This document shows, one piece after another, positions 1 to 16,747 of a DNA stretch of 43,597 nt (positions are counted from its first letter, which is position 1; each line of letters starts with the position of its first letter). Source of the stretch: a virus (lineage: Duplodnaviria > Heunggongvirae > Uroviricota > Caudoviricetes); the IMG/VR virus record IMGVR_UViG_2711768020_000006, one strand, 5' to 3'. Under the pieces are notes generated by a model, which worked only from the letters and a program-made list of their open reading frames with translations, was not told where the DNA came from and did no database searches. The position numbers were made by a program, and so were the translations under genes.

Positions 1-100
1 CTGGGGAATATCTCCCCGGCAGCCTTCAGGGAAAAATATCATCAGATGGCTGCTTAAAAAAAGAACAAATGGTAGTGTCCGCTATTGCCAGTACACCTCA
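1..100. repeat. Left copy of a 100-bp perfect inverted repeat shared with 43498-43597; IS66-family 5' region including the first ~10 codons of tnpA
   Basis: Reverse complement of 43498-43597 matches 1-100 base for base; identity breaks at position 101. Confidence 0.9.
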
Positions 101-299
101 GCTATTACCTTCTTCAGAGAGCCCCCAGCTACTTCCTGTGACTCTCGATGCAGCTGCCGAACAGCCAGAATCGCTCGCAGAGGACCCGAAAACCCTCAGT
201 ATCAGCTGTGAGGTAACGTTCCGGCACGGGACGCTCCGCTTCAATGGCAATGTCAGCGAAAAGCTCCTGACTCTGCTGATACAGGAACTGAAGCGATGA
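69..299 (+). CDS. tnpA: IS66-family accessory protein TnpA (orfA)
   Basis: 76-aa ORF whose stop overlaps the tnpB start (ATGA); position and size fit IS66 orf1. Recognised from memory of the family. Confidence 0.6.
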   Translation: MVVSAIASTPQLLPSSESPQLLPVTLDAAAEQPESLAEDPKTLSISCEVTFRHGTLRFNGNVSEKLLTLLIQELKR

Positions 300-619
300 T
301 CCCGTTACCTTCCGGGATCAAAATTTGGCTGGTTGCCGGTATCACCGATATGAGAAATGGCTTCAACGGCCTGGCTGCGAAAGTACAGACGGCGCTGAAA
401 GACGATCCCATGTCCGGCCATGTTTTCATTTTCCGGGGCCGCAGCGGCAGTCAGGTTAAACTGCTGTGGTCCACCAGTGACGGACTGTGCCTCCTGACCA
501 AACGGCTGGAGCGTGGGCGCTTCGCCTGGCCGTCAGCCCGTGATGGCAAAGTGTTCCTTACACAGGCGCAGCTGGCGATGCTGCTGGAAGGTATCGACTG
601 GCGACATATAACCAGGTGA
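296..619 (+). CDS. tnpB: IS66-family TnpB (orfB)
   Basis: 107 aa; N-terminal IWLVAGITDMRNGFNGL and FIFRGRSG..KLLW motifs are typical of IS66 TnpB. The stop codon TGA (617-619) coincides with the proposed prophage left end, so the C-terminus may be altered. Confidence 0.75.
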   Translation: MIPLPSGIKIWLVAGITDMRNGFNGLAAKVQTALKDDPMSGHVFIFRGRSGSQVKLLWSTSDGLCLLTKRLERGRFAWPSARDGKVFLTQAQLAMLLEGIDWRHITR

Positions 620-788
620 ATCATTTGATACCGACAAGGGGTTTAGTGAAAGGAGGTGAAATCACCTGTAAGATACTGAAATAAAACAGGTGATGGCTAG
701 ATGTGCGGATAAGGTCTATTTGATACCGATTGTGCAATAATTAGTCATTTATTATAAAATCGGCAACTCATTTGATACTGTGGTTTTA
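617..788 (+). repeat. Prophage left end (attL-like): three transposase-binding-type repeats at 624-632, 719-727 and 771-778 (TTTGATAC core), plus a 9-bp inverted repeat ATCACCTGT/ACAGGTGAT (661-669 / 686-694)
   Basis: Motif seen directly; the spacing (one terminal site, two sites ~100-150 bp inside) mirrors Mu L1 versus L2/L3. Confidence 0.6.
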
Positions 789-852
789 GTCTTTTAAGGC
801 GTTCCAAACAATGCGAAATACTCGATATAGTGCAAAATGCGGGCTAATGCTA

Positions 853-1398
853 TTAACCCGCTTTTGGTTCTACCGCGTTAGATTTGCGACTTCTCTCAGT
901 TTCTTCCAAAATCTCTCTGACGCGTTCGTCAGACATACCTTCAAGCTGTAATGCAGCTATTCTTTTCCTTCCTTCTAAGCGGATTAGATCTTGATTTTCA
1001 GGCTCTAACAACCGAGCTAAGTACTTGGCTCCATTCAGAACCAAATTTTTCGATAGCTGCTCTAAGTCTTTTTCATCAAGTGCGCTGATAATCGTCATAA
1101 TTATCTTCTTGCTTTCATCTTGATTTTCCTTGATCTCACACCGATTCACTTGTGATGCATCACTGAATCCACATAGCCACTCAACACTTACTCCTTCGAT
1201 AGACGCAATCTGAAGGGCGACACTTAAGGATGGCTCAGTGCCACGAGACAGATAATTGTTTAGTGTTGAAAATGAAAGCCCCCAATCTCTTGCTGCAGCT
1301 CTGACGCTGCGGGAGCCAATCAGCCTTTTCAGACGCTCAGCAATGCTTTCTTTTCTACCACCAGGAAAAGAAAGAGATGTTGTTGTTTGCTTGTTCAT
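853..1398 (-). CDS. Prophage immunity repressor (Mu c analogue) with a Ner/XRE-like HTH
   Basis: Divergent from ner-A-B at the left end, as in Mu; HTH-like segment SVRAAARDWGLSFSTLNNYLSRG; AGGAAG Shine-Dalgarno 9 nt upstream of the ATG. Confidence 0.6.
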   Translation of the reverse strand: MNKQTTTSLSFPGGRKESIAERLKRLIGSRSVRAAARDWGLSFSTLNNYLSRGTEPSLSVALQIASIEGVSVEWLCGFSDASQVNRCEIKENQDESKKIIMTIISALDEKDLEQLSKNLVLNGAKYLARLLEPENQDLIRLEGRKRIAALQLEGMSDERVREILEETERSRKSNAVEPKAG

Positions 1399-1538
1399 TT
1401 TCTTTTCTTCCTATCAATTTGAAATTATTAACTTTTAGTGTTGTCAGCAACCATTGATCCACAATAGACAAAAGAAAGATGTTTTTTTTGCTTTACATGA
1501 AGCAGAAGTGGATCAATACTTATATCAAACTTGATAAC

Positions 1539-1562
1539 TAAGTTTAGTTATCAAATTTCGTA
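1539..1562. promoter_or_regulatory. Candidate operator: perfect 10-bp inverted repeat TTGATAACTA-agtt-TAGTTATCAA between the repressor and ner
   Basis: Dyad seen directly in the divergent c/ner intergenic region. Confidence 0.5.
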
Positions 1563-1583
1563 ACTTTTTAGGATAGATGAATC

Positions 1584-1814
1584 ATGGCGAGAAATGAAGT
1601 TAAGCCTGATTGGCATCCTCAAAGAATTTTGGGGGAAGTCAGAGCCAGAGAAGGAAGCATGAGGGCGCTGGCCCGTAAAGCTGGCGTGGGTCAGAACAAT
1701 CTGTACAACGCGGTATACCGCCATGTTCCCAAGTATGAGGGGATTATCGCGGAATGCCTGGGGGTGCCGCCCGAGGAGATTTGGCCCAGCCGCTACATTC
1801 GTAAGGTCGCGTAA
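1584..1814 (+). CDS. ner: Ner-like DNA-binding regulator
   Basis: 76 aa; resembles Mu Ner (WHP..., ...LARKAGVGQNNLYNAV..., C-terminal IWPSRY); sits immediately upstream of the transposase. Confidence 0.8.
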   Translation: MARNEVKPDWHPQRILGEVRAREGSMRALARKAGVGQNNLYNAVYRHVPKYEGIIAECLGVPPEEIWPSRYIRKVA

Positions 1815-1816
1815 TT

Positions 1817-3904
1817 ATGTTTGCTTCAGTTAAAGAACTGGTTGGATTACCGGGGATGCCGGGAACGGAGCAAGGCGTTCGCTATTCAATCAGGAAGTAT
1901 GCAACCAGCGAAACCAGCAGACGCCGCAAGAAAGGCGCTAAAGGTTTTGAATACAGCATTGACTGTTTACCTGAAGTGACACAGCAGGCATTACGCGAAC
2001 GTTATGCCCTGCAACTGATGACGCAAAAAGCCGATGAATCACCGGCTCCGGTGGTGACAAAGGCCAGACGCTCGTCTGCCGTGGTTGATGCGGTGGAGGC
2101 ATATCGCGGATCACCACAACTGATGGTCGAACGCCTCAATGCCCTGACTGAAAACCAGCGCCAGGTGGCAGACGCACGCATTGCGATCGTCAGTGAGGTG
2201 CTGAAATTCACGCAACAACCCGGTTTCAGCTGCGCTAAAGCTATCCGGTTCCTCGTTAACAGCCTGGCACGATCACAACTGGACGAGCGCATTGTGGCAA
2301 TGGTTGAGACGGCGAACGCCAAAAAGGGAAACAGCCGCGCGTTGAGTGAAATCACGCTGAAACGCTGGATTGCGGCCTTTAACAAGGCACAGAACGCCGC
2401 TGAACGCCTGCTTTTACTGGCACCGGGTAAACGCCAGGAAATAAAAGCCGAAGATATTAACTGGCTGCCCGAATTTCTGGCGCAGTATCGCCAGTCAAAC
2501 GGCCGACCAATGACCGAGGCTTACGAGGATTTTGTTGCTGAATGGCAGCACCGGCACGCTGATGAGCCTTATATGCTCGATATCATGCCCTCTTATGACA
2601 CCATTCGCCGCGCAATGAAGAAACTGCCGGAAGTGGTGAAACAAAAAGGCCGGGTAACTGGCAGTGAATACCGTCAGCTTGAGGGATTCACGCGCCGCGA
2701 CTGGTCCAGAATGCCGGTGAATTATGTCTGGATTGGTGACGGTCACGGCATGAAGCTGAAATGCGCGCACCCGGTTCACGGGCGGCCATTCGCACCGGAA
2801 GTGACCTTTGTTATCGACGGTGGCACGCGCTTTGTGGTGGGCTGGAGCCTTGACCTGGCTGAAAATGTTTTCGCCGTAGCCGGTGCCATACAGCACGGTA
2901 TTCGCCATCATGGCAAACCGTTTCTGTATTACTCGGATAATGGCTCCGGGGAAACCGCCGACGTCCTGGATAAGGAGATTGTGGGGATACTGCCACGACT
3001 GGGGATTAATCACCCGACAGGGATTGCCGGTAATCCGCAGGGACGGGGCATTATCGAACGGCTTAACCGCACATTACCGATGCGCATAGCCCGTAAATAC
3101 CGCACCTATTTCGGGAAAGGAGCAGATCGCGAGACGTTACGTAAAACCAACCGCGATTTACGCTCGGCATTCAGTGCCCTGCAACAGGGCAAACGGCTGA
3201 ACGCCCGGCAGCAGTCAGCGATGCGTGATTTACCGTCCTGGTCTGAACTGATTGATGCCATTCGTGACGGTGTTGAGTGGTACAACAACCGGCCGCACGA
3301 TGAATTACCCATGAAGCCGAACGGTAAACATTACAGCCCGGCGGAGTTCAGAAAAAAACGCCTGGCGGAAGAGGACACGGAAATTGAATGGCTGTCCGAT
3401 GTTGAACTGCGGGATATGTTCCGGCCGATGGTGGAGCGCCCTGTAAGACGCTGTGAAATACGCTGGCTGAATAATATTTACTACGCGCCCGAGCTGCGTG
3501 ACGAGCATGGCCGTAAGGTACTTATCAGCTATGACATTCATGATGCCGAACGAATTACCGTGCGCCGCCCGGATGGCAGCGTGATTTGCGAGGCGGTATG
3601 GGACGGCAATAAACGCGAAGCCTTCCCTGTCAGCGCGGAATACTACAAACAGCAGCAGCGCCTTAAAGGCATGCGTAAACGCGCAGAGGAAAAAATCCGT
3701 GATGCCGAGGATGAGGTTGTCAACGTGCTGGAGCACAAGCCGCAGGAGCCCTGGCTGGAAAACATATACCGCCCTGTGGGTAATACGGTGACCGTTCAGC
3801 AACCGGTCGCTGACGATGAACCTGATGAAGAATACGAGCGTAATTTCCAGCGGGGATTGCAACTGCTCGAAGCGAAATTAAAAGAAAGTGATCCGCTGGC
3901 CTGA
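1817..3904 (+). CDS. A: Mu-type DDE transposase A
   Basis: 695 aa; N-terminal GLPGMPGTEQGVRY enhancer-binding-type motif; candidate DDE residues in VWIGDGHG, YYSDNGSGE and GIIERLN; position after ner. Confidence 0.9.
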   Translation: MFASVKELVGLPGMPGTEQGVRYSIRKYATSETSRRRKKGAKGFEYSIDCLPEVTQQALRERYALQLMTQKADESPAPVVTKARRSSAVVDAVEAYRGSPQLMVERLNALTENQRQVADARIAIVSEVLKFTQQPGFSCAKAIRFLVNSLARSQLDERIVAMVETANAKKGNSRALSEITLKRWIAAFNKAQNAAERLLLLAPGKRQEIKAEDINWLPEFLAQYRQSNGRPMTEAYEDFVAEWQHRHADEPYMLDIMPSYDTIRRAMKKLPEVVKQKGRVTGSEYRQLEGFTRRDWSRMPVNYVWIGDGHGMKLKCAHPVHGRPFAPEVTFVIDGGTRFVVGWSLDLAENVFAVAGAIQHGIRHHGKPFLYYSDNGSGETADVLDKEIVGILPRLGINHPTGIAGNPQGRGIIERLNRTLPMRIARKYRTYFGKGADRETLRKTNRDLRSAFSALQQGKRLNARQQSAMRDLPSWSELIDAIRDGVEWYNNRPHDELPMKPNGKHYSPAEFRKKRLAEEDTEIEWLSDVELRDMFRPMVERPVRRCEIRWLNNIYYAPELRDEHGRKVLISYDIHDAERITVRRPDGSVICEAVWDGNKREAFPVSAEYYKQQQRLKGMRKRAEEKIRDAEDEVVNVLEHKPQEPWLENIYRPVGNTVTVQQPVADDEPDEEYERNFQRGLQLLEAKLKESDPLA

Positions 3905-3977
3905 AATAAAAAAATAACCCGAGGGGTGACTCAGGTTATTTGAGGTTTCAGTCTCGGAGAATGCTGTCTCAAGCGAG

Positions 3978-4919
3978 GTGAATAATATGACCGATATTAA
4001 CGATGTAATCAAGACCATTGATGAACTTATTGATGGCGGCGTACTGACGCAGTATGCCATCGCCAGAGAGGCGGGAATTTCCGACGGCACATTATCGGCT
4101 TTCCGTAAGGGAAAATATAAAGGCGATAACGCTGCTGTGGCTGCTTCCCTGCGCTCCTGGTATGAGAACTGGAATAAACAAAGCGCACTGCCGGAACCGC
4201 CGCAGTTTGTGGAAACTCAGACAGTCCAGGAGCTGCGCGCACTGTTTCAGGCGGTTCGCCTGATGGGCTGTATTAACGTTATTGTGGGCGTACCGGGTGT
4301 GGGTAAAACGGCCACTGCCCGTAATTACTGCCAGGAGCAACCAAACACCTGGATGATCACCCTGTCACCCGCGCACTCCAGCGTCACGGAGTGTCTGCTG
4401 GAGCTGGCCGATGCGCTGGGGATTGATTACACCCGCGCGAACAAAGGGGCATTATCCCGCGCCATCCGCCGTCGCCTGATGGGAACGCGTGGACTGGTGA
4501 TTGTGGATGAGGCGGATCATCTTGGTATTGACGGTCTGGAGCAACTCCGGGCAATTCAGGACGCCACGGGGATCGGGATGGTGCTTATTGGTAACCCGCG
4601 CGGATTGTTTAAAGGTGGACGCCGCGCCTTTGATGATTTATCGCGCCTGTTCAGCCGTCTTGCCCGTACAAAACAACTTCGCAAGGCCAAAAAGGCGGAT
4701 GTGCTGGCCATTGCCATGGCGTGGGGGATCAGTGGTGAGGCCGAGCTGGCCGTCATGCAGGCTATCGCTGAAAAGCCGGGAGCGTTACGCGTTCTGACAC
4801 ATACGCTTAACCAGGCGTGGCTCACCGCCAGCGGTGAAGGCGCGGCGCTGACAGAAAAACATATTAATGCGGCCTTTAAAGAGGTTTATACCAACCCTGA
4901 ATTACTCTCACAGGTGTGA
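3978..4919 (+). CDS. B: Mu B-type transposition ATPase (AAA+ target DNA activator)
   Basis: 313 aa; Walker A GVPGVGKT and Walker B LVIVDEADHL; N-terminal HTH; follows A. Confidence 0.9.
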   Translation: MNNMTDINDVIKTIDELIDGGVLTQYAIAREAGISDGTLSAFRKGKYKGDNAAVAASLRSWYENWNKQSALPEPPQFVETQTVQELRALFQAVRLMGCINVIVGVPGVGKTATARNYCQEQPNTWMITLSPAHSSVTECLLELADALGIDYTRANKGALSRAIRRRLMGTRGLVIVDEADHLGIDGLEQLRAIQDATGIGMVLIGNPRGLFKGGRRAFDDLSRLFSRLARTKQLRKAKKADVLAIAMAWGISGEAELAVMQAIAEKPGALRVLTHTLNQAWLTASGEGAALTEKHINAAFKEVYTNPELLSQV

Positions 4920-4921
4920 TT

Positions 4922-5143
4922 ATGGCGGTATTTAATATTCCTGATATTTACGGACGCTTTTACCTGGTTAATTTCGATAACGTGAAGGTGATTTCACTGG
5001 CCGAAAATAAAGAATGTGGCGATTTACTTTTTGAATTTAATGACCGCACACGAATGGTGATATCTGCCGGACTTGATCGCGAAGGTGCGACAGAAGTTTA
5101 CAGCGGAATATGCCGTTCTGTTGGTGCGAAACAAGTCAGCTAA
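4922..5143 (+). CDS. Hypothetical early protein
   Basis: ORF with AGGTG Shine-Dalgarno; ATG chosen over the tracker's GTG at 4916. Confidence 0.4.
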   Translation: MAVFNIPDIYGRFYLVNFDNVKVISLAENKECGDLLFEFNDRTRMVISAGLDREGATEVYSGICRSVGAKQVS

Positions 5144-5155
5144 ATGAGGTGTTAT

Positions 5156-5410
5156 ATGAATATGCAATCCTGCGGTAACAAAATGAATTTATTCGACTCC
5201 CTGAACAGCGCGCGCCGTCTGACCGAACTTGCCGGTGCGGTACTGGAACGCAGTAAGCGCTATCCGCAACGTTTTGCACTGAAAACCACGCCGCCGGTAG
5301 GCAACGTGCAGGGAACCGGTGAAATTGAAATCACCATACAGACCAACGGCCTGCGCCGCCGTGTGAAGGCCACCCGCATCAGCGGCTGCACGGTTTACTG
5401 GGAGGTGTGA
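5156..5410 (+). CDS. Hypothetical early protein
   Basis: ORF; GAGGT Shine-Dalgarno 5 nt upstream of the ATG at 5156. Confidence 0.4.
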   Translation: MNMQSCGNKMNLFDSLNSARRLTELAGAVLERSKRYPQRFALKTTPPVGNVQGTGEIEITIQTNGLRRRVKATRISGCTVYWEV

Positions 5411-5411
5411 G

Positions 5412-5693
5412 GTGAAAAAAAATCTCATTGCATGGGCGTGGTCGAGTGGTCTTATTGAGTTTGGTTACGTCCTGCCGGAAGGTGCATTGCCGATAGTTGC
5501 CGGAAAGCCTGCCACGGTACGGCATGTGATTGAGGTTATGGCGCGTCATGGACGTGATGAACAGGAGCAGTTACTGGTTCCGGGGATACCGGAAGCGGTG
5601 ACGGAGGAAGAAGCCTTTAATGCCATGATTCGGTTCTGCCGTGAGGTTAGACGCCGGGTCAGTTATCCAAACAGAACGAGGACCAGAGGATGA
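5412..5693 (+). CDS. Hypothetical early protein (GTG start)
   Basis: ORF abutting the previous stop; GGAGGTG Shine-Dalgarno. Confidence 0.4.
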   Translation: MKKNLIAWAWSSGLIEFGYVLPEGALPIVAGKPATVRHVIEVMARHGRDEQEQLLVPGIPEAVTEEEAFNAMIRFCREVRRRVSYPNRTRTRG

Positions 5694-5962
5694 GTAAAGT
5701 CGTACGCATTATTTTCGAATACAAGGAAGATGTTATCTGCAAAAACTCTGATGGCAGCACGCACAGAGGGGTAAGTCTGGATATACGTTCAACCGGAATA
5801 AAGAAGAAAGATAATGGACCCGCCATGATTTTTGGGGTGGTTATGCTGGCAGAAAGCAGAAACTTCGCAGAGTTTGTGGCAATGAAAGCCAGTGCATTCA
5901 TGAAAGACAGAGGCATGGCTTCCGGGGTTATTAACGGTAATGAATTTAATCAACAGGGGTAA
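5690..5962 (+). CDS. Hypothetical early protein, N-terminus MSKVVRIIFEY (paralogue of the next gene)
   Basis: ORF with AGAGGA Shine-Dalgarno; shares its N-terminal motif with 5967-6260. Confidence 0.45.
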   Translation: MSKVVRIIFEYKEDVICKNSDGSTHRGVSLDIRSTGIKKKDNGPAMIFGVVMLAESRNFAEFVAMKASAFMKDRGMASGVINGNEFNQQG

Positions 5963-5966
5963 TTCC

Positions 5967-6260
5967 ATGAGCAAAGTACGCGTTATTTTTGAATTTAATC
6001 ATGTTTCGCATGACGAAAAGTTGGCAGGCAATGACTGTGTTGAAGTGCATGAAAAGATTGGAGTGGATGTGAAAACAGAACGTGATACGGATAACAGGCC
6101 GACGTCACTCTGTGACGTTTATGCAAGTATTCTCCAGTATCACAGTCCTGCAATTATTCAGTTTCTCTCAGCGGAATTTCAGGCATCTGCACAGTCTTTT
6201 GGAGCGGATGCCATCATTAAACGCCACCGCGTGCATAAAGCATCAGGCACACTGCAATAA
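5967..6260 (+). CDS. Hypothetical early protein, N-terminus MSKVRVIFEF
   Basis: ORF; internal ATG with AGGGG Shine-Dalgarno preferred over the tracker start at 5940. Confidence 0.45.
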   Translation: MSKVRVIFEFNHVSHDEKLAGNDCVEVHEKIGVDVKTERDTDNRPTSLCDVYASILQYHSPAIIQFLSAEFQASAQSFGADAIIKRHRVHKASGTLQ

Positions 6261-6271
6261 GGAAAAACAAA

Positions 6272-6802
6272 ATGGCTAAACGCGTTACAAAATTAAAGGC
6301 CGCAGCCGAGGCGGCACCGCAGACCCGGGAAGAAGTCAGCCGTGATATCCGCACCCTGGGAGATATTCAGCGAGAGGCGCTGCGCCTGGAAACGGCGATG
6401 AATGACGAAGTGGCAGAAATCACCGCCCGTTATACGCCGCAGATTGAAAATCTTAAAAAGCAAATCAAAGTGCTTTTTAAAGGGATTCAGGACTGGTGCA
6501 AAACCAACCGTGATGAGCTGACGAACGGCGGCAAAACCAAAACAGCCAATCTGACCACCGGAACGGTGTCATGGCGGCTGGGAACGCCATCATGCAGCGT
6601 CAGCCGTGATGTGGAAGGTGTGATTGAAATGCTGCGCCGTATGGGGCTTGAGCGTTTCATCCGCACGAAAGAGGAAGTGAACAAGGAAGCCGTCCTGGCG
6701 GAGCCGGATGCTGTGAAAGGCATTGCCGGTATCAAGGTGAATAAAGGCGCTGAAAGTTTTTATGTCGAGCCTTTTGAACAGGACGCCGGACTGAATAAAT
6801 AA
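6272..6802 (+). CDS. gam: Gam host-nuclease inhibitor (Ku-like DNA-end-binding protein)
   Basis: 176 aa; strong resemblance to Mu Gam (RLETAMNDEVAEIT, CKTNRDELTNGGKTKTANL, ERFIRTKEEVNKEA). Confidence 0.88.
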   Translation: MAKRVTKLKAAAEAAPQTREEVSRDIRTLGDIQREALRLETAMNDEVAEITARYTPQIENLKKQIKVLFKGIQDWCKTNRDELTNGGKTKTANLTTGTVSWRLGTPSCSVSRDVEGVIEMLRRMGLERFIRTKEEVNKEAVLAEPDAVKGIAGIKVNKGAESFYVEPFEQDAGLNK

Positions 6803-6947
6803 CACCGCATTAATCAATTAAATATCACTTCATTTTAATTATGGCGCTCGCGTCAGGGGACTGCTTGCGCCTGAAAACAGAAAATAAGGGTTAAGAAATA
6901 TGAAATACGTTTATATCGTCATTAATAATGTGGTGGGGAAATAAATC

Positions 6948-7481
6948 ATGATTGATGCAAAAGTGCTTGAAGGGGTTAAAAACTGGCTGTGTATTTATGG
7001 CCGCCTGACCTGCGGTGTACTGGCTGAAAAAATGAATATGCCGCCATCCTCCATGGTTTATTTTCTGCGTGATGCGGTTGATGCAGGCGTGCTGACGGAA
7101 TGTAACGGTTTTTATGATATTCCGCGTCCCCGCCCGGTGCAGCCGGTTCGTCGCAAATGCAGCCAGGAATCTGCGGCTGATGATGTTCAGTGGTGCGGCT
7201 TCAGAAAATCCCTGCCATGGATTGAGGGGCATGATATTCCGTCGATGGCGTGGGAATTTGCTCAGGGCGTTCTGACCTGTGAAACCGTTTATGTGGTGGC
7301 TGAAGTTGATGAGCAGGCCATGAAAGAAGGCGTGCCCCAGTTTGTGATGGCGTATATCGACATACGCCTGGGCGTCATTATCTGCGGTTTAAGCGGCTGG
7401 AATATCACTGAACATGTTCTGCGCTACCTGATTGTTGACCGGACAGCAGCGCCTGCCGGGATATCTGCGGAGGTGGCGTAA
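6948..7481 (+). CDS. Hypothetical early protein (possible N-terminal winged helix)
   Basis: ORF with Shine-Dalgarno; translationally coupled to the next gene. Confidence 0.4.
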   Translation: MIDAKVLEGVKNWLCIYGRLTCGVLAEKMNMPPSSMVYFLRDAVDAGVLTECNGFYDIPRPRPVQPVRRKCSQESAADDVQWCGFRKSLPWIEGHDIPSMAWEFAQGVLTCETVYVVAEVDEQAMKEGVPQFVMAYIDIRLGVIICGLSGWNITEHVLRYLIVDRTAAPAGISAEVA

Positions 7482-7996
7482 TGTTCTTTAAAACATCAAA
7501 CCCTTCCGCGCTGGCTGCGTGGCAAAAATACCAGCAGGACTGCCAGAAAGTTAAGGATGAGGCAAAACGCCTTGAGGCCGTGCTGAATGTTGCGTGCCGG
7601 TCGGTATTTGTATCCGGTATCAGTGGATTTTACTTTAAGGGACTGCGTTTTACGGAGGACAAATATCCTTTTCATCGCGACTTATGGCGAAAACCGACTG
7701 CGTCGAATGGCTGGAGCTGCACACCGCGCACATCACGTATCCCTAAAACCCTGCGTGTTGCCTCTGATGAACTGAACAGTCTGTGGCGTGAATATTCGCC
7801 CGTCACGTATGCCAGAACCGATGCGCTGTTGTTCTGGTTGGGTATTGATTTCTCGGCAATCCTGTTTGGCCCTGTGAAGTGGTTCTGCGTTGACGATGTG
7901 ATTTACCTTCAGTGCGGCGTAAAACCCGCAAAACAGAAAATGACCGAAATACTGTCTGATGAGTTTTATGCTGCTGAAAAGCGAGTCAGGGGGTGA
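7481..7996 (+). CDS. Hypothetical early protein
   Basis: ORF; ATG overlaps the upstream stop. Confidence 0.4.
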   Translation: MFFKTSNPSALAAWQKYQQDCQKVKDEAKRLEAVLNVACRSVFVSGISGFYFKGLRFTEDKYPFHRDLWRKPTASNGWSCTPRTSRIPKTLRVASDELNSLWREYSPVTYARTDALLFWLGIDFSAILFGPVKWFCVDDVIYLQCGVKPAKQKMTEILSDEFYAAEKRVRG

Positions 7997-7999
7997 TGC

Positions 8000-8551
8000 A
8001 TGATGAAATTACAACCCATGGGACTAAAAGGTCGCGCCCCCGCTCATGTCCGTCCGTGGACACCTGAAGAAGATGCGCTGCTGATTGCGCTTTATTCATC
8101 CACCCCGGTTAAGGATATTGCTGCCAGAATAAAAAGAACTGTCTGGGCTGTATATAACCGGACTGGTGTATTGCGCAGTTCATACCCGGAGTTACTGAAA
8201 TATAAACACCCAAGATTTACACCTGATGAAGATAAGTTTATTCGAAAAAATGCCAGAACAATGACCTGCCAGCAAATGGGAGAATATCTCGGACGTAATA
8301 AAGATTCTGTCAGATGTCGGGCAGGAATGATTGGTGCTGGATTAACAAAGTGCGGAGAGTTACGCCCCGGCACGCGCATATCTGATGATGATGTACGTCT
8401 TATACGTGAGCTGCGTGATTCCGATTACCCACGCCGTCTGTCATTCCGGGAAATTGGCGAAAAGTTTGGAATATCTGAACATTCTGCTCACGCAGTTTAT
8501 TACCGTCGCCGGACTGCCGAGGACGCTGTATTACGGGAGTTAACGCCATGA
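8000..8551 (+). CDS. Hypothetical DNA-binding protein with two Myb/SANT-like repeats and a C-terminal HTH
   Basis: Repeats WTPEEDALLIALY...W and FTPDEDKFIRKNA... seen directly; C-terminal LSFREIGEKFGISEHS looks like an HTH. Confidence 0.45.
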   Translation: MMKLQPMGLKGRAPAHVRPWTPEEDALLIALYSSTPVKDIAARIKRTVWAVYNRTGVLRSSYPELLKYKHPRFTPDEDKFIRKNARTMTCQQMGEYLGRNKDSVRCRAGMIGAGLTKCGELRPGTRISDDDVRLIRELRDSDYPRRLSFREIGEKFGISEHSAHAVYYRRRTAEDAVLRELTP

Positions 8552-8880
8552 TAACGACCTTATTTGTTGAATCAGATGAACCTCTTGTGTGTGCCGCCGG
8601 AATGCCGCTCTGTGGCGGAACGCTGACCGGCGTTTATTTCGGGGATTTGCGCGGTTATCCCTGGCATTCACTGGATGACGCATTTCCGCCTGATATGGAG
8701 GCTGTCGTGCTGATTGTTCAGTATGGTGACCAACAGGAACTGCGCATCGGCCATATGGGGTATGAAGGCTTTTTTATTGATGAAGAAACCGGAGCCTGCC
8801 TTGAAGATGAGGACGGACAGGTGACGCACTGGTGCCATCTTTCGGCCTTGCCGGAATTACAGGGGATACATAATGGATGA
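8548..8880 (+). CDS. Hypothetical early protein
   Basis: ORF coupled (ATGA) to the upstream gene. Confidence 0.4.
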   Translation: MITTLFVESDEPLVCAAGMPLCGGTLTGVYFGDLRGYPWHSLDDAFPPDMEAVVLIVQYGDQQELRIGHMGYEGFFIDEETGACLEDEDGQVTHWCHLSALPELQGIHNG

Positions 8881-9016
8881 GCAAATTGTTGAATGTCCCA
8901 CCTGTGGAAATGAGGACCCGGAGTATCTGAAAGAGTGCCCACATTGTGGTGAGATAAAATGTAACCACTGCGATATGGGCGACGACACTGCATGTATAAA
9001 TTGTGAGGATGAATAA
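8873..9016 (+). CDS. Small zinc-ribbon protein (47 aa, four Cys pairs: CPTC, CPHC, CNHC, CINC)
   Basis: Translated by eye; absent from the ORF track because it is under 60 aa. Confidence 0.45.
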   Translation: MDEQIVECPTCGNEDPEYLKECPHCGEIKCNHCDMGDDTACINCEDE

Positions 9017-9017
9017 T

Positions 9018-9305
9018 ATGGAAAAAGAAATCAAATTTGCGCCTAAATCTATCGACGAAGAACTGGCTAAAATCGGCATGCTTGAACGTATGCGGGACAT
9101 TATCGAATATGCGATAAAAGAAAATCTTGCAGCCAGAGAAGCCCTTTTGATAATGGAGCGGGAGATTAACCTGATTAAGGATGCTGTATCTCTGGATAAT
9201 AAAATAGCCCGCGAGGAATACGTTCGCCGTAGGCTCGGTGTTGATGGTTCAGCAATTCTTACATCTGAACATTATGCAAAAATTTTTAATCTTTTTCAGC
9301 GGTAA
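9018..9305 (+). CDS. Hypothetical early protein
   Basis: ORF; ATG at 9018 with GAGGA Shine-Dalgarno preferred over the tracker start at 9003. Confidence 0.4.
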   Translation: MEKEIKFAPKSIDEELAKIGMLERMRDIIEYAIKENLAAREALLIMEREINLIKDAVSLDNKIAREEYVRRRLGVDGSAILTSEHYAKIFNLFQR

Positions 9306-9525
9306 TCCCCATACAGGCCCGGAGATTGTCGAAATGCCAGTCGGTATTAATATATGAGCCATCCTGGATATCTTCTGCATTTTCCGGGGTAGAGTTTTTT
9401 TGAGCGAGATTGATAATATGTATTGCCTCCTCACGGGAAATCAGCCCCTTATCGAACAGGGTTACCATAAGATTTCCAGCCATTGTGAATGCGGCAACAT
9501 CAAGTGCATTTTTTATATCTGACAT
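9286..9525 (-). CDS. Hypothetical small protein encoded antisense to the early operon
   Basis: 79-aa ORF with AAGGA Shine-Dalgarno 9 nt upstream; it fills a plus-strand coding gap (9306-9595). Confidence 0.5.
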   Translation of the reverse strand: MSDIKNALDVAAFTMAGNLMVTLFDKGLISREEAIHIINLAQKNSTPENAEDIQDGSYINTDWHFDNLRACMGITAEKD

Positions 9526-9553
9526 AGATTTTTCCTTTTATGTTAATTGACAT

Positions 9554-9582
9554 GGCGGTGCGGTAACACCGCCCATTTTTTA
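9554..9582 (+). terminator. Rho-independent terminator candidate (GGCGGTG-cggtaa-CACCGCC followed by a T-run)
   Basis: Hairpin and T-tract seen directly. Confidence 0.5.
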
Positions 9583-9595
9583 TGGAGCCACGATA

Positions 9596-10108
9596 ATGAA
9601 TCGCGCTTCCCTGATTACCTTAATACATGTCGCAAAACGCGATCTACAGCTTGACCATGATACCTATACATCCGCGCTGCTGGCAGCCACCGGCAAATCC
9701 AGTTGCCGTGATATGTCACCCGGTGAGTTATCCCGCGTGCTGGATGTTTTCAAAAAACGCGGTTTTAAAGTGCGTCAGAAGCCGGTTAACCGGGCCTTAA
9801 AACCGGGTACGGTGACCGCCAAAATTCGCGCCATCTGGAAAGTGATGCACCGGCAGGGATTTATCTCTGATGGCGGGGAAACGGCCCTTAACCGCTGGGT
9901 GAAATCGCAGACGGCCGCGCAGAACGACGGCGAAGGTGTGGCTAACTGGCAGTGGCTGGAGCAACAACCCGCGCTGGCCTCTGATGTGCTGGAGCGTCTC
10001 AAACGCTGGCACCGCCGCAAAATGCTGGCAGCCCTGGATATGTCGGAACGTGCAGTGATGAGTTATGAGCGTGTTTGCAGGCTGTATGAAAAATCATTCC
10101 CCCGTTAA
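9596..10108 (+). CDS. gemA: GemA-like early protein (Mu gp16 family)
   Basis: 170 aa; position just upstream of the Mor/C-type activator and general resemblance to the Mu GemA family (from memory). Confidence 0.55.
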   Translation: MNRASLITLIHVAKRDLQLDHDTYTSALLAATGKSSCRDMSPGELSRVLDVFKKRGFKVRQKPVNRALKPGTVTAKIRAIWKVMHRQGFISDGGETALNRWVKSQTAAQNDGEGVANWQWLEQQPALASDVLERLKRWHRRKMLAALDMSERAVMSYERVCRLYEKSFPR

Positions 10109-10113
10109 CCCCA

Positions 10114-10143
10114 AATCCCGCCACAGCGCGGGATTTTTATTTT
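10114..10143 (+). terminator. Rho-independent terminator (AATCCCGC-cacagc-GCGGGATT followed by TTTTTATTTT)
   Basis: Hairpin and T-tract seen directly; lies at the end of the early region as the Mu t9.2 terminator does. Confidence 0.7.
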
Positions 10144-10178
10144 AAACTTGCCCTGTGTAATGATGACCGGAGGCGGGT

Positions 10179-10601
10179 ATGGCTGAAACACAGATGAGCA
10201 TGTTTGGTGACAGCGAACAGCTGCACGCGCTGATTGACCGTCTGGATGATATTCCTGATGATGAGCTGAAAAAGAACTGGCCCGGCACGCTGCGGGACCT
10301 GGTTGATGTGATCAGTGCTGAACTGCACCGTCAGGGGATTGAACCTGCTCAGGCGGGAATGCTTGCCCGTAAGGTTGCAGCCGCACAGGCCGGGTACATG
10401 GGCGGGCGTGGTTATTATCTCCCGGTCGGTGAATCCCTTTTCACCGAACTGCGCAATAATGAAATTTTTTCCCGCTGGAGCCAGGGCGAAAAAATTGAAA
10501 CCCTGCGCCGCCACTACCAGATGTCAGAGACGCAGATTTACTCCGTTATCCGCAACCAGCGTCGCCTGCATCAGGAACGCACGCAGCCACGGCTTTTCTG
10601 A
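10179..10601 (+). CDS. Mor/C-family transcriptional activator (middle/late gene activator)
   Basis: 140 aa; position between gemA and the lysis genes; C-terminal HTH (YQMSETQIYSVIRNQRR). Whether it corresponds to Mor or C cannot be decided. Confidence 0.65.
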   Translation: MAETQMSMFGDSEQLHALIDRLDDIPDDELKKNWPGTLRDLVDVISAELHRQGIEPAQAGMLARKVAAAQAGYMGGRGYYLPVGESLFTELRNNEIFSRWSQGEKIETLRRHYQMSETQIYSVIRNQRRLHQERTQPRLF

Positions 10602-10672
10602 TATTCCGCAAATCCTGCCCCCTTTTCCTCACGGTTACGCTGACTCAGAGAACACCATGAGACAGCGTAACA

Positions 10673-11173
10673 ATGCCAAAACTCCCCGCACCCCTGCGTA
10701 AAAAGCTGATTGCCCTTGTTCTGGCCGGAGCCGGGACGTTCACCATTGCCACGCACTACACCGGCTACTGGGAAGGGAAAGAAAACACCACGTACATTGA
10801 TCCCACCGGCACCCCCACCATCTGTTACGGCCATACCGGCCCGGATGTGAAACCGGGGATGACAAAAACTGATGAAGAGTGTCTGGAGCTGCTGGAAAAG
10901 GACATGAAATGGGCCTTTGCGGCTATCGATCGTCATGTTCAGGTGCCGCTTACCCGTGGTCAGACGGTGGCGCTGGCCTCCTGGATTTTCTGGGCCGGTG
11001 AAACGAACTTTCGCAACTCCACGCTCCTGCGCCTTATCAATGCCGGGCAGATGCCCGCGTCCTGTAAGCAGTATATCCGCTGGATTTATTCAAAGGGGGT
11101 AAAACTCCCCGGTCTTGAGGCCCGCCGTTCGGCGGATGAATGGTTATGTCGTTACGATTTGCCGAAAGTCTGA
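10673..11173 (+). CDS. SAR endolysin (T4-lysozyme-like, GH24)
   Basis: N-terminal weakly hydrophobic signal-anchor LIALVLAGAGTFTIA; catalytic E-x8-D-x5-T pattern in YWEGKENTTYIDPTGTPT. Confidence 0.85.
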   Translation: MPKLPAPLRKKLIALVLAGAGTFTIATHYTGYWEGKENTTYIDPTGTPTICYGHTGPDVKPGMTKTDEECLELLEKDMKWAFAAIDRHVQVPLTRGQTVALASWIFWAGETNFRNSTLLRLINAGQMPASCKQYIRWIYSKGVKLPGLEARRSADEWLCRYDLPKV

Positions 11174-11636
11174 ACCGCTTCTGGCGACCGCTCATGATTG
11201 CGCTGCTGTGTGCCGTTGTGCTGCTGCGGGGTGTGCTGTGTCTGCGGTGAACAATCCCTTACCGGCCCTGATTGCCGGAGGCTGTATGGCGGCGCTGGGG
11301 GTGATGAGCGTGCTGGCTGCCGTGGTATGGGGAATGCACCAGAAGACGCAGCGCCTTGAGGACAATAATCATGTGCTTGTGCGTGAACGGGACGAAGCCC
11401 GTCTGGTGCTGGCAAACCAGCAACGCACCCTGCAACTCATTTCACAAATCAGCAAGGCGGCCACGAATGAAAAACAGCAGAACATGCAGCACAGCGAGGA
11501 ACAGCAGAGCATTGTCCGCCGGTCACTGGCAACGGTGCCTGCTGCCGCTGTGCCTGTGCCTGATGATGTGGCTGACCGGGTGCGGCGGGCCGTCTGTGAA
11601 ATACGTGCCGGTGAAGCCGGTGCCGATCCCCGCTGA
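11136..11636 (+). CDS. i-spanin (Rz-like): transmembrane helix plus periplasmic coiled coil
   Basis: Transmembrane segment ALIAGGCMAALGVMSVLAAVVWG followed by a charged helical region; start uncertain (tracker used TTG at 11115). Confidence 0.6.
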   Translation: MNGYVVTICRKSEPLLATAHDCAAVCRCAAAGCAVSAVNNPLPALIAGGCMAALGVMSVLAAVVWGMHQKTQRLEDNNHVLVRERDEARLVLANQQRTLQLISQISKAATNEKQQNMQHSEEQQSIVRRSLATVPAAAVPVPDDVADRVRRAVCEIRAGEAGADPR

Positions 11637-11838
11637 ATGGCTGGCTGACTGCCTGGTCCCTCCCGCGCCGCAGCCGTTCACGTTTGGTGCATCGGTCACT
11701 TACAACCTGCAACTGCTGGCGGTGATTAAAAACTGCAACGTGGACAAGGCCAGCATCCGCCGTCTGGAGACACAGCGACAGCATGAATTTACTGATATGG
11801 CCGGAACGACTGCTGTTCCGGCAGGAAAGACGAAGTAA
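11467..11838 (+). CDS. o-spanin (Rz1-like outer-membrane lipoprotein), overlapping the 3' end of the i-spanin gene in another frame
   Basis: Signal peptide with lipobox LTGC and a Pro-rich mature region; overlapped spanin architecture. Confidence 0.55.
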   Translation: MKNSRTCSTARNSRALSAGHWQRCLLPLCLCLMMWLTGCGGPSVKYVPVKPVPIPAEWLADCLVPPAPQPFTFGASVTYNLQLLAVIKNCNVDKASIRRLETQRQHEFTDMAGTTAVPAGKTK

Positions 11839-11848
11839 GGAAAAAGGT

Positions 11849-12076
11849 ATGGATGATTCAGATTGTGCTCAGGCAGTCATGGAGCGTGCAACAGAACGCG
11901 CCCTTTGTGACCGGCTGACACGTAAGCGCCGGGTGGCGGAGACACCGGGCAGGCGTGTATGCGCGGACTGCGGGGGTGACATTCCGGCTGCCCGTCTGGT
12001 TGCCGTGCCGGATGCCATCCGTTGTGTGAACTGCCAGAACATCATGGAGGCCGGTCATGTGGGTCAGCATCGTTAA
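11849..12076 (+). CDS. TraR/DksA-family C4 zinc-finger protein
   Basis: CADCGG..x17..CVNC motif; AAGGA Shine-Dalgarno; internal ATG preferred over the tracker start at 11783. Confidence 0.65.
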   Translation: MDDSDCAQAVMERATERALCDRLTRKRRVAETPGRRVCADCGGDIPAARLVAVPDAIRCVNCQNIMEAGHVGQHR

Positions 12077-12368
12077 AGATTATGTCGTGCCGATCCTGTC
12101 GGCAACGGCCACAGCCGGGGGGATCTTCATGGCGCTGATGCGCAAAACCTTTGTCCCCCGCGAGGCCTTTGAAAAACTCTCCGACCGGGTTGAGCGGGTG
12201 GAGAGCCGGATTTCCGGCCTGCCCACGCAGCAGGAGGTGAACAGACTCAATATCGAAATCACCACCCTGCGCGGTGAGCTTAAGGCCACCAATGCCACCC
12301 TGAAATCCGTCTCCCATCAGAACGAACTGCTGCTGGAGCAGGCTGTAAGGAAAAAACACAATGAGTGA
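12057..12368 (+). CDS. Membrane/coiled-coil protein, possibly lysis-related
   Basis: N-terminal transmembrane helix (VVPILSATATAGGIFMALM) followed by a coiled coil. Confidence 0.4.
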   Translation: MWVSIVKDYVVPILSATATAGGIFMALMRKTFVPREAFEKLSDRVERVESRISGLPTQQEVNRLNIEITTLRGELKATNATLKSVSHQNELLLEQAVRKKHNE

Positions 12369-12651
12369 TTTCATTACTGAAGATCAGCGTCTTGTCATTC
12401 TGCGGTCGCTGGCGGATTACAACGGCGAACTGGGCGAATCCGTGCTTCAGGACTGCCTGGATGATTACGGTCACCGCGTGTCCCGCGACACCGTTCATAC
12501 CCACATTGCCTGGCTTGCCGAGCAGGGACTGGTGCGTAAGCGCACGCTTGTTAACGGTTATTTCATCGCTGAACTGACCGGCCGGGGTCAGGATGTGGCG
12601 GAAGGCCGCGCCACCGTTCCGGGTGTGAAGAAACCACGCGCAAGGGGGTAA
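12361..12651 (+). CDS. Hypothetical protein (possible winged-helix)
   Basis: ORF coupled to its neighbours. Confidence 0.4.
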   Translation: MSDFITEDQRLVILRSLADYNGELGESVLQDCLDDYGHRVSRDTVHTHIAWLAEQGLVRKRTLVNGYFIAELTGRGQDVAEGRATVPGVKKPRARG

Positions 12652-12653
12652 CG

Positions 12654-13235
12654 ATGGATAAGCCAGCGCGTGGCCGTGTACGCAAGGTGGATTTGCTCCC
12701 CGACAGCATCCGTAAGCCGCTGCTGGAAATGCTGCGTGAAAAACGTCTGACGCAGGTCCAGATCCGCGAGGAAATCAACCGTCTGATCCGTGAAGCAGGT
12801 CTGCCGGAAGAGCAGCAGCTCTCACCGGCGGCCATCAGCCGGGAAGCCTCCCGTAATGAGCTGATTGCCCGTAATCTGCGTGATTTACGCGAGCAGACAA
12901 AAGCCATGATGGCCGAACTGGGGGATAAGCCGACCGGTGAAACCACGGCACTGATTCTGGAGATGTCCCGTGCCCTGATGTACCGCCGTCTGCGTGCCGC
13001 CACCGAATCCCTGAACAGCGACAGCGATGTGGATATGCGCCTTATTAAGGACATCCTCCTGTCGGCACAGCGTGCAGAAAGTGCCGCCGAGCGCAGCATT
13101 AAGCGTGAAAAAGAAATCCGGGCCGCATTTGCTGAAGAGATGGCGAATGCGGTCACCGATGAGTTGCGCGGCGTGGATGGCATGAGCGAGCAGATCGAAT
13201 TCCGTATCAGGCAGATGCTGCTGGGTAAGGCGTAG
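12654..13235 (+). CDS. Mu gp27-like protein (putative terminase small subunit)
   Basis: Position immediately upstream of the large terminase; helical basic protein. Confidence 0.5.
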   Translation: MDKPARGRVRKVDLLPDSIRKPLLEMLREKRLTQVQIREEINRLIREAGLPEEQQLSPAAISREASRNELIARNLRDLREQTKAMMAELGDKPTGETTALILEMSRALMYRRLRAATESLNSDSDVDMRLIKDILLSAQRAESAAERSIKREKEIRAAFAEEMANAVTDELRGVDGMSEQIEFRIRQMLLGKA

Positions 13236-13245
13236 GAGGTGAATC

Positions 13246-13494
13246 ATGGCAACAGATAACCGCTCACTGATGAGCAGTGCCCATCAGAAAGCATTCAGTC
13301 TTGCAACACAGTTACCTCCTGAAACCATAAAGGTATGTCGTGAGTTGACTGAACTCAGCATTGCCGGGGAAATATCCCTGGAACAACTGCATTCGCTGCT
13401 GGCAGAGGCTGCCACTGATGAGTTGAGCGGCGTGGACGTGATGACTGAAGAGCTTGAGTCCCGAATCAAAAGCATTCTGACAGGTAAAGCATGA
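13246..13494 (+). CDS. Small protein whose C-terminus duplicates the C-terminus of the gp27-like protein
   Basis: ATDELSGVDVMTEELESRIKSILTGKA versus AVTDELRGVDGMSEQIEFRIRQMLLGKA; strong AGGAGG Shine-Dalgarno. Confidence 0.45.
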   Translation: MATDNRSLMSSAHQKAFSLATQLPPETIKVCRELTELSIAGEISLEQLHSLLAEAATDELSGVDVMTEELESRIKSILTGKA

Positions 13495-15158
13495 TGAACA
13501 AAGCCAGAGAAACGTCGCCTTCACTGATGCAAATGACGCCTCCCCGCAAAATTGATCTGTCAGGTGAAAAAGCCCTGCTGGGCGTGGATGTGCCGGACAG
13601 CCTTGATTTGCCCGGTGATATGCCGGTGTTTCTGGATTATCAGGCCCGCTGGTTTGCAGATGAAAGTCAGGTCTGCATCGCGGAGAAATCCCGCCGCACC
13701 GGTCTTACCTGGGCGGAAGCCGGGCGTAACGTCATTACTGCTGCAAAACCGAAGCGTCGTGGTGGCCGCAATGTGTTTTATGTGGGATCAAAGCAGGAGA
13801 TGGCGCTGGAATATATTTCTGCCTGCGCGCTGTTCTCCCGTGCCTTTAACCAGCTGGCAGATGCTGATGTGTATGAGCAGACATTCTGGGATCGGGATAA
13901 AAAAGAAGAAATTTTGACCTACATGATCCGCTTTCCGAACAGTGGATTCAAAATTCAGGCATTGTCTTCCCGTCCGTCAAACCTGCGCGGCCTTCAGGGG
14001 GATGTGGTGATTGATGAAGCCGCGTTCCACGAGTCACTGGATGAGCTTCTCAAGGCGGCAATGGCGCTCACTATGTGGGGCGCGCGCGTGCGTATTATCT
14101 CCACGCATAACGGCGTCGATAATCTGTTTAATCAGTACATTCAGGAAGCCCGCGAGGGGCGCAAGGATTACAGCGTCCACCGCATAACCCTGGATGATGC
14201 CATTGCGGACGGGCTGTACCGTCGTATCTGTTACGTCACCGATCAGGAATGGTCACCGGAAAGCGAGCAGAAATGGCGTGATGATCTCTACAAAAACGCC
14301 CCGACCCGTGAGGATGCCGACGAGGAATACGGCTGTATCCCGAAAAAATCCGGCGGTGCCTATATCCCCCACGCGCTTATTGAAATGGCGATGATCCGCG
14401 ACATCCCGATTCTGACGTTTGAAGCCCCGGACAACTTCATCAGCCGTGCCGCATGGCTGCGTGAATCGGAAGTTTTAACCTGGTGTGAAGAACATTTAAA
14501 ACCGCTTTTAGAGAAATTAAATCCCCGTTCCCGCTTCAGCTTCGGGGAAGACTTTGCCCGCACCGGTGACCTGTCCTGCTTTGTGCTGCTGGAAATCACC
14601 GAATCCCTGGCAAAGCGCGAGGTGTTTCGCGTGGAGCTGCGCAACCTGCCGTATGCCCAGCAGGAACAGGTGATGATGTACATCCTGACCCGCGTTCCGG
14701 CGCTGGTCGGTGCGGCGTTCGACGCCACCGGTAACGGCGGCTATCTGGCAGAGGCCGCACTGCTGGCCTTTGGCCCGGACATCATCGACTGCGTGATGTT
14801 GTCGCCGAAGTGGTACGGCGAGTGGATGCCAAAACTGAAAGCCGAGTTTGAAGATCAGAATATCCTCGTCGCCCGCCATCAGACCACGCTTGATGATTTG
14901 CGCCATGTGAAGGTAGTGAATGGTATCCCGCAAATCGACAAGGGGCGCACGAAGGACCAGAACGCAACGGCTGCGAACGCCCGCCGCCATGGTGATTTTG
15001 CCGTGGCGCTCTGTATGGCAAACCGGGCGTCATACATGGAGGGCTTCATCCTGGATGAATCAGCCTGTCAGGCGCTACAGGAGCGGTCGCGGGCAATGGA
15101 GGGCGGTTATCGTGATGACGATGAGGCATATCATGAATTTGATCGGGGGGGCTGGTAG
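13491..15158 (+). CDS. Terminase large subunit (Mu gp28-like)
   Basis: 555 aa, position and size; the ATPase/nuclease architecture is inferred, not verified. Confidence 0.7.
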   Translation: MMNKARETSPSLMQMTPPRKIDLSGEKALLGVDVPDSLDLPGDMPVFLDYQARWFADESQVCIAEKSRRTGLTWAEAGRNVITAAKPKRRGGRNVFYVGSKQEMALEYISACALFSRAFNQLADADVYEQTFWDRDKKEEILTYMIRFPNSGFKIQALSSRPSNLRGLQGDVVIDEAAFHESLDELLKAAMALTMWGARVRIISTHNGVDNLFNQYIQEAREGRKDYSVHRITLDDAIADGLYRRICYVTDQEWSPESEQKWRDDLYKNAPTREDADEEYGCIPKKSGGAYIPHALIEMAMIRDIPILTFEAPDNFISRAAWLRESEVLTWCEEHLKPLLEKLNPRSRFSFGEDFARTGDLSCFVLLEITESLAKREVFRVELRNLPYAQQEQVMMYILTRVPALVGAAFDATGNGGYLAEAALLAFGPDIIDCVMLSPKWYGEWMPKLKAEFEDQNILVARHQTTLDDLRHVKVVNGIPQIDKGRTKDQNATAANARRHGDFAVALCMANRASYMEGFILDESACQALQERSRAMEGGYRDDDEAYHEFDRGGW

Positions 15159-16747
15159 TGGGACGCATCATTGATACTGACGGAAAACCTTTCTCCTTTG
15201 ACCCGGAGATGCAGAGTGCCGCGCTGGATATTCCGCAGATTGCCAGCCGTTATATTGAACATCCGGCTTCGGGTATCACCCCGAACCGGGCGGCGCAGTG
15301 CCTTCGCGGGGCTGAACGTGGCGATCTGATTGCCCAGTCCGATCTGGCCGCTGATATTGAAGAAAAGGACACCCACCTTTTTGCGGAGCTGGGCAAGCGA
15401 CGTCTTGCCATTCAGGGGGTGCCATGGAGTATTGAGCCGCCACCGAACGCCAGCGCGAATGAGAAAAAGGACGCGGAAATGCTCGACGAATATCTGCATT
15501 CCGCAGACTGGTTTGATGCCATGCTGTTTGACGCCACGGATGCCATCCTGAAGGGCTATTCCTGCATGGAAATTGAGCACGGGATGCTCGGTAAAATGCA
15601 CATCATCCGCGCCATCCGCTGGCGTGACAGCGGGCATTTCTGCCTTAACCCGGATGATTTGAGCGAACTGCGGCTGCGTGACGGCAGCCATGCCGGGGTG
15701 GCGTTTCAGCCCTTTGGCTGGATAGTGCATCAGTCGCGTTCACGCACCGGCTACGGTGGTGCGACGGGGCTTGTCAGAACGCTTATCTGGCCGTTCATTT
15801 TCAAAAACTATTCCGTGCGCGATCTGGCGGAATTTCTGGAGGTGTACGGCCTGCCAATGAAGGTCGGGAAATACCCGTCCGGGGCAACACCGGAGCAGAA
15901 AAGTGCCCTGATGCGGGCGGTGATGGATATCGGGCGACGTACAGGCGGGATCATCCCGGCCGGGATGTCGCTGGAGTTTCAGGCGGCAGCGAACGGTCAG
16001 GCCGATCCGTTTGAAACCATGATTTCGTGGGGTGAGCGTTCCATCTCCAAAGCAATACTCGGCGGCACGCTGACCACAGAAGCCGGAGACAAAGGCGCGC
16101 GCTCGCTGGGTGAGGTGCATAACGAGGTGCGCCGGGAAATCAGGGATTCTGATTTACGCCAGCTGGCTGCAACCCTGAACCGCGATCTGGTGTATCCGCT
16201 GTATGCCCTGAACACCGCCCACGCCATTGATATCCGTCGCCTGCCGCGTATCTGTTTCCAGACCAAAGAACCGGGGGATATCACCAAAATAGCCAGTGCG
16301 GTGATGCAACTCAGTGCGGGGATGGATATTCCTGATCCCTGGGTACGGGATCAGACCGGTATTCCACAGCCCACGCCCGGTGAAGCCATATTCCGTGTCC
16401 GTCAGAGCAGTAATGAACCGGCCATGCCTGACAGGGAAACGCTACCGGAAAAACAGGAAAAGACAGAACAGACGGCGCTTTCAGCCCGACTGCCGGAAGC
16501 GAAAAACACGCCGCGTGATGAACTGGACGACATGGGGGACGCGGTGCCTGCCCGCCGCTTACAGGAGGCCATCGATCCGGTGCTGGAGCCGGTCATTGAT
16601 GTCATCAGAACGCGGGGGCTGGCGGAGGCACTGGCAGACCTGCCTGCCCTTTACCGTGAAATGGATGATTCCCGCCTGATGACGCTGCTCAGTGATGCCA
16701 TGTTTGCTGCGGAAATGAAGGGGATGCTGGATGGCTCAGGGGATTGA
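15158..16747 (+). CDS. Portal protein (Mu gp29/H-like)
   Basis: 529 aa between terminase and the MuF-like gene; resembles the Mu-like portal family (from memory). Confidence 0.7.
   Translation: MGRIIDTDGKPFSFDPEMQSAALDIPQIASRYIEHPASGITPNRAAQCLRGAERGDLIAQSDLAADIEEKDTHLFAELGKRRLAIQGVPWSIEPPPNASANEKKDAEMLDEYLHSADWFDAMLFDATDAILKGYSCMEIEHGMLGKMHIIRAIRWRDSGHFCLNPDDLSELRLRDGSHAGVAFQPFGWIVHQSRSRTGYGGATGLVRTLIWPFIFKNYSVRDLAEFLEVYGLPMKVGKYPSGATPEQKSALMRAVMDIGRRTGGIIPAGMSLEFQAAANGQADPFETMISWGERSISKAILGGTLTTEAGDKGARSLGEVHNEVRREIRDSDLRQLAATLNRDLVYPLYALNTAHAIDIRRLPRICFQTKEPGDITKIASAVMQLSAGMDIPDPWVRDQTGIPQPTPGEAIFRVRQSSNEPAMPDRETLPEKQEKTEQTALSARLPEAKNTPRDELDDMGDAVPARRLQEAIDPVLEPVIDVIRTRGLAEALADLPALYREMDDSRLMTLLSDAMFAAEMKGMLDGSGD

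Follow-up and report, generated by a model that had tools for sequence, protein, structure and literature searches.

Truncated IS600 ends at both termini of a Mu-like prophage contig from Shigella sonnei

IS600 belongs to the IS3 family; all Shigella species show an expansion of five IS families, IS600 among them (PMC7373316). The complete element is 1,264 bp long, with termini (left TGAGGTAGCC..., right ...GTACACCTCA) of the 5'-TG...CA-3' type. These form imperfect terminal inverted repeats, in which 18 of the first 26 positions agree between the two ends by our own count.

As for the chromosomal surroundings that concern us here, the closed S. sonnei genomes shown in our comparisons carry the order IS110/IS66::IS600/tail-fibre/DUF4376, followed by the gene of the 608-aa IpaHb and then by murR...purL. 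In most of the closed S. sonnei genomes shown, ipaH3 is found at another locus, near yebW, between two IS600 copies.

We analysed one stretch of DNA of 43,597 bp, called the window throughout, that begins and ends with the same sequence in opposite orientation. Very probably, this is a contig truncated in IS600 at both ends, in which two loci were joined within an ipaH repeat, most likely falsely. The finding is an ordinary one.

Identity of the terminal repeat

The two arms, at 1-100 and 43498-43597, are exact reverse complements over 100 of 100 nt, both by inspection of the ends and with a repeat finder, which bears out what a preliminary description of this DNA had reported. They are separated by a spacer of 43,397 nt. 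Complementarity breaks right after 100 nt, with g at position 101 and c at the matching base of the other arm. We calculate that about 1e-51 perfect inverted repeats of 100 nt would be expected by chance in 43.6 kb. Chance is not the explanation, since the same 100 nt recur in 2,887 of 5,426 complete E. coli genomes, at up to 43 places per genome.

When compared to elements annotated as “IS3-like element IS600 family transposase”, the arms have an identity of 100/100. They are 100% identical to the final stretch of a complete 1,264-bp IS600 (locus L002 of our comparison, 2001-2100). Frame 1 of positions 1-100 translates as LGNISPAAFREKYHQMAA*, corresponding to the last 18 codons and the stop of IS600 orfB. 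In the full copy at L002, the coding sequence ends at the equivalent of window position 57 and the element at 100.

The left contig end (1..100, plus strand) is composed of the last 100 nt of IS600, with the 3' end and stop of orfB at 1-57 (plus strand) and the non-coding end at 58-100 (plus strand). The latter contains the imperfect right terminal repeat of about 26 bp, which finishes in ...GTACACCTCA (...CCTCA). At the right contig end (43498..43597, minus strand) the same 100 nt are found. Judged by this identity, both arms belong to the right end of IS600, an IS3-family element, with no IS66 sequence in them. The repeat is an already fully known element and not a new genetic element.

The preliminary description had read the arms as two IS66 5' regions, with the first ten codons of tnpA inside the repeat, facing inward around the whole block. 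This reading draws on an ATG at position 69, which opens a 76-codon ORF (69-299) running into tnpA; some annotations call it as a gene, in at least one genome (L048, 14659-14889). However, positions 1-100 are 100% IS600, and the ATG sits within the IS600 terminal repeat, in frame by chance with the 3' 65 codons of tnpA. The ORF is a hybrid that starts in the IS600 right terminal repeat and continues into the 3' part of IS66 tnpA. IS66-family homology begins only at 101, with the best matches covering 101-606 at 99.6%, and the alignments to L004 and L008 also start there. The uninterrupted tnpA has 126 aa, with window position 101 in codon 61, and its true start is found beyond the IS600 (L007, 8357-8554; the uninterrupted gene is at L008, 176-556). 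At the other end, the right arm is adjoined by the region upstream of ipaH3, without IS66. We give the IS66 reading practically no chance; neither the ten tnpA codons nor the pair of inward IS66 ends survives the comparison.

The IS66-family element and the Mu-like prophage

An IS66-family element is present just inside the left arm. Positions 101..606 (plus strand) contain tnpA up to 299, in the form of its 3' 65 codons, and tnpB from 296 onward (PF05717, TnpB_IS66), corresponding to L004 3501-4006. The tnpB is interrupted at 606 by a Mu-like prophage, and the remainder of the element, with the 3' end of tnpB and tnpC, is found at 39240..39828 (plus strand). An internal deletion has removed 1,080 bp of tnpC between direct repeats of 16 nt (window 39369-39384). 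The deletion is common to Mu-less S. sonnei genomes, so that this copy of IS66 is defunct.

Next, a lambdoid tail-fibre remnant and a DUF4376 gene are located at 39848..41444 (plus strand). The remnant has a contig-specific in-frame deletion of 144 bp at 40136/40137, between GGAT microhomologies. It is absent from all other S. sonnei loci compared, and the resulting 340-aa product exists, in the whole collection, on this contig only. The deletion is private to this contig or, alternatively, an error of the assembly.

The Mu-like prophage is 38,633 bp long (607..39239, plus strand) and includes a repressor, MuA, MuB, a G segment, gin and mom. Within the IS66 tnpB it is flanked by a duplication of 4 bp, and not of 5 bp, with the sequence GACA (603-606 and 39240-39243). 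The exact empty site is seen in Mu-less S. sonnei (L020 and L028). Closed S. sonnei CP176614.1 shares this insertion, as do about 110 blocks of the collection.

Relatives of this prophage are annotated as Mu-like phages within Stx phages, where the duplication is likewise of 4 bp, and occur at many different sites of E. coli and Shigella. A 97-aa ORF and the 173-aa tail-fibre assembly protein, both from near the right end of the prophage, led to this Mu-like phage at many unrelated sites in E. coli and Shigella. No close full-length relative was found in the phage collection, where the only matches are Mu-like phages in Stx phages, at about 94% over parts, and Yersinia phages, at about 81%. 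Our literature search for a Mu-like prophage together with ipaH in S. sonnei returned nothing useful.

The invertible G segment (32760-34111) is bounded by inverted repeats at 32770-32855 and 34017-34102, and gin is found at 34173-34745. In CP176614.1 (L055) the orientation of this segment is opposite to that of the window, which fits an active Gin-type invertible tail-fibre switch.

Two other genomes vary around the prophage. In S. sonnei 53G (L033, 8724), the right end of the prophage adjoins the equivalent of window position 40306, and the interval 39241-40305, with the IS66 remainder and the 5' part of the tail fibre, is missing. This is the result either of a deletion next to the prophage or of a separate insertion event. 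The draft contig CWZC01000017.1 (L008, 1-360) has the same Mu insertion, at 100% over 10.5 kb, with an uninterrupted tnpA after 90 nt of IS1. IS600 is absent from the tnpA of L008, where Mu is present, but it is found there in Mu-less genomes. This is either a lineage difference, in conflict with a simple order of events, or a further chimeric path through the IS66 segment, which is multi-copy.

Contig ends, IS600 insertions and the join between ipaH loci

The 340-aa tail-fibre protein has a single source in the whole collection, the contig CWWF01000021.1 (GCA_001253395.1), which is 43,597 bp long, with a range ending at 43597. The window thus corresponds to this short-read draft contig in full, and the species is Shigella sonnei. 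The sources of the neighbouring IpaHb name S. sonnei, and the closed genomes that match include S. sonnei 53G (HE616528.1). As the window is an entire draft contig, its termini are therefore contig ends within a multi-copy IS. The preliminary description had offered an assembly artefact at repeat boundaries as a fallback, and in this it was essentially right.

In the mechanism that we propose, both contig ends would stop 100 nt into IS600, and a single IS right end would be met twice, facing inward. The perfect identity of the arms would come from near-identical IS600 copies, the real repeat being the 1,264-bp element. A length of 100 nt at both ends is most likely a fixed overlap of the assembler into the repeat, of about k-1. 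We only infer that 100 equals k-1.

Other drafts were also considered as a source for the k-mer size. The contig CWZC01000017.1, another CW-series draft, ends 90 nt within IS1. Several S. sonnei drafts stop 100-103 nt past the last base separating IpaHb from ipaH3; in CXAK01000042.1 (L056), from a similar accession series, the stop is 103 nt, not 100, past the last distinguishing SNP. These depths are suggestive, not conclusive.

Full IS600 copies are present in other genomes at the same junctions. For the left one, closed CP176614.1 has a full-length IS600 at L007 8542-9805, with the 5' part of tnpA beyond it, and L020 has a full copy as well. For the right one, closed S. sonnei have a full-length IS600 at L009 and L010 (8579-9842), located 158 bp upstream of ipaH3. 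Only the inner half-sites appear in the window (101-103 and 43495-43497), and both sides were read in the closed genomes. The left IS600 has a 3-bp duplication, GCT, with its inner copy at 101..103 (plus strand) and the form ...aaagctGCT[IS600]GCTattacc in L007 and L020. For the right IS600 the duplication is CTA, with its inner copy at 43495..43497 (minus strand) and the form ...gcaagCTA[IS600]CTAttcacag in L009 and L010. Furthermore, the EIEC locus L003 is an uninterrupted empty site for the right IS600.

Read from these junctions, the left and right IS600 are independent simple insertions. The left copy would have entered an IS66-family tnpA, in an element also struck in tnpB by the Mu-like prophage. 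The right copy would have entered 158 bp upstream of ipaH3, which is at a different locus in closed genomes.

The gene ipaH3, encoding a 571-aa T3SS effector E3 ubiquitin ligase, is located at 41624..43339 (minus strand). Four tandem 60-nt units, 62-85% identical, are found within it at 42791-43030; these are coding repeats of the leucine-rich-repeat domain and no separate element. The conserved 3' half of ipaH together with 72 bp downstream makes up a stretch of 728 bp (41552..42279) that is 100% identical at the IpaHb and ipaH3 loci. At 42280, the first base that tells the two loci apart, the IpaHb locus has T; the window has C, like the ipaH3 locus.

We observed that window 1-42279 tracks the IpaHb locus, with L020 matching 1-606 and then 39240 onward across the empty prophage site. 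Positions 41552-43597 are 100% identical to the ipaH3 locus (L010). As the two flanks match different loci, the contig moves from the IpaHb locus to the ipaH3 locus within 41552-42279. The closed genome CP176614.1 matches window 1-10620 (L007, 99.99% over 10.6 kb) and 31768-42406 (L055), where the differences are the inverted G segment and the 144-bp deletion. With the same IS600/IS66/Mu left junction, this genome has DUF4376 and then IpaHb-murR-purL (L055), and not ipaH3-IS600.

Two other candidates for the switch were set aside. A third locus, with a 547-aa ipaH beside mlrA (L019 and L026), was considered as the source of 40170-42586 on account of its lower number of mismatches, and is ruled out by the per-site table. 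In the same table, the extra mismatches of L020 are confined to 40102-40136, where the 144-bp deletion produces an overlap. Position 42188 was rejected as a crossover mark, being a private variant of L009.

Among the places listed, DUF4376 is next to IpaHb in 9 of 9 of S. sonnei type, and among the distinct neighbourhoods listed it is next to ipaH3 in 0 of 10. The two IS600 copies concerned share the plus strand of CP179952.1, at about 1.018 and 2.488 Mb, and are thus direct repeats separated by about 1.47 Mb. None of the closed relatives examined, which place the IS600 copies at different loci, has the 43-kb block in either orientation.

Three accounts of the block have to be weighed. One is a composite transposon, in which two IS600 copies captured and moved the 43 kb as a unit. 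The same IS does lie inverted at both ends of a block with a prophage and a virulence gene. However, GCT/GCT and CTA/CTA around the individual copies mark single-IS insertions, the empty site of the right copy is intact in EIEC, and the two copies are some 1.47 Mb apart in CP179952.1. Because the two IS600 copies are each flanked by a separate 3-bp duplication in closed genomes, composite-transposon movement is ruled out, bar the slightest residual chance. On the same ground we refute the suggestion in the preliminary description that the region was captured by IS elements.

Another account takes the contig as correct, homologous recombination between IpaHb and ipaH3 having inverted about 1.47 Mb and swapped the flanks in this isolate. 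In CP179952.1, IpaHb is on the minus strand (about 1.02 Mb) and ipaH3 on the plus strand (about 2.49 Mb). Because the two genes are inverted there, a crossover in the identical 728 bp would give exactly the structure of the window. Shigella chromosomes are heavily rearranged. The exact ipaH3 protein is also found on contigs of 20-50 kb in 8 blocks of the collection, which could reflect either a recurrence of this linkage among related isolates or a repetition of the same error. Against a real inversion, the arrangement appears in none of the closed neighbourhoods shown for ipaH3 or IpaHb, including CP176614.1 with the same Mu. The switch also falls precisely within a repeat with three or more copies, which is often not crossed in short-read assemblies. 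We consider the inversion unlikely, if well above negligible.

The account that we prefer is a misassembly, and the join of the IpaHb and ipaH3 loci in this contig is probably of that kind. The assembler would have joined the two loci within the 728 bp common to both genes. The repeat at 41552-42279 has at least three copies, and many short-read assemblies fail to cross it. Partial IpaHb proteins are found at contig ends in other drafts, and full-length IpaHb is present on 20-50 kb contigs in 138 blocks. Greedy scaffolding and gap filling can cause false joins (PMC5320598), in a widely used pipeline that may not be the one behind this assembly. In a real chromosome, two IS600 copies probably do not bracket these 43 kb. 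The arms had also been described as a substrate for inversion of the segment; this holds in principle for inverted IS600 copies, but closed genomes indicate that the copies are probably not 43 kb apart.

Comparison with known systems

Terminal inverted repeats of draft contigs call for caution, as in IS-rich genomes such as those of Shigella they are usually the truncated ends of one IS. In the same way, contigs that cross multi-copy families such as ipaH may link distant loci. Read literally, this contig would falsely imply a 43-kb virulence block that can be inverted or mobilised, and a role for IS66. If the join were true, recombination between ipaH paralogues would drive a megabase inversion, of modest interest for Shigella genome plasticity. 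Such an inversion would leave a 43.4-kb IS66/Mu/ipaH3 block between full inverted IS600 copies, invertible by IS600 x IS600 recombination.

In terms of the ipaH loci of S. sonnei, window 39240-42279 matches the IpaHb locus, near purL, and 41552-43597 matches the ipaH3 locus, near yebW/pphA, at 100%. Unlike these loci, the contig joins IpaHb and ipaH3 in a way found in none of the closed genomes examined.

Compared with a standard IS66 element (tnpA-tnpB-tnpC), one copy is present just inside the left arm (101-606 and 39240-39828). It differs in being a single degraded copy, with IS600 and Mu-like insertions and the tnpC deletion, and none is found at the right end.

The window also resembles other repeat-bounded short-read contigs. 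It is a whole contig with both ends at the same IS600 coordinate; likewise, a contig of another CW-series draft enters IS1 by 90 nt before it ends, and in other drafts the breaks come about 100 nt beyond the last base separating the ipaH paralogues. The difference is that the mechanism behind the 100-nt depth is inferred here.

Finally, the arms agree with IS600 of Shigella and E. coli in the C-terminus of orfB, the stop, and the right terminal repeat ending in CA, with 100% identity. They also share its 3-bp target duplications and its nature as a multi-copy element expanded in all Shigella species. There is no biological difference from IS600, just 100 of its 1,264 nt being visible at each contig end.
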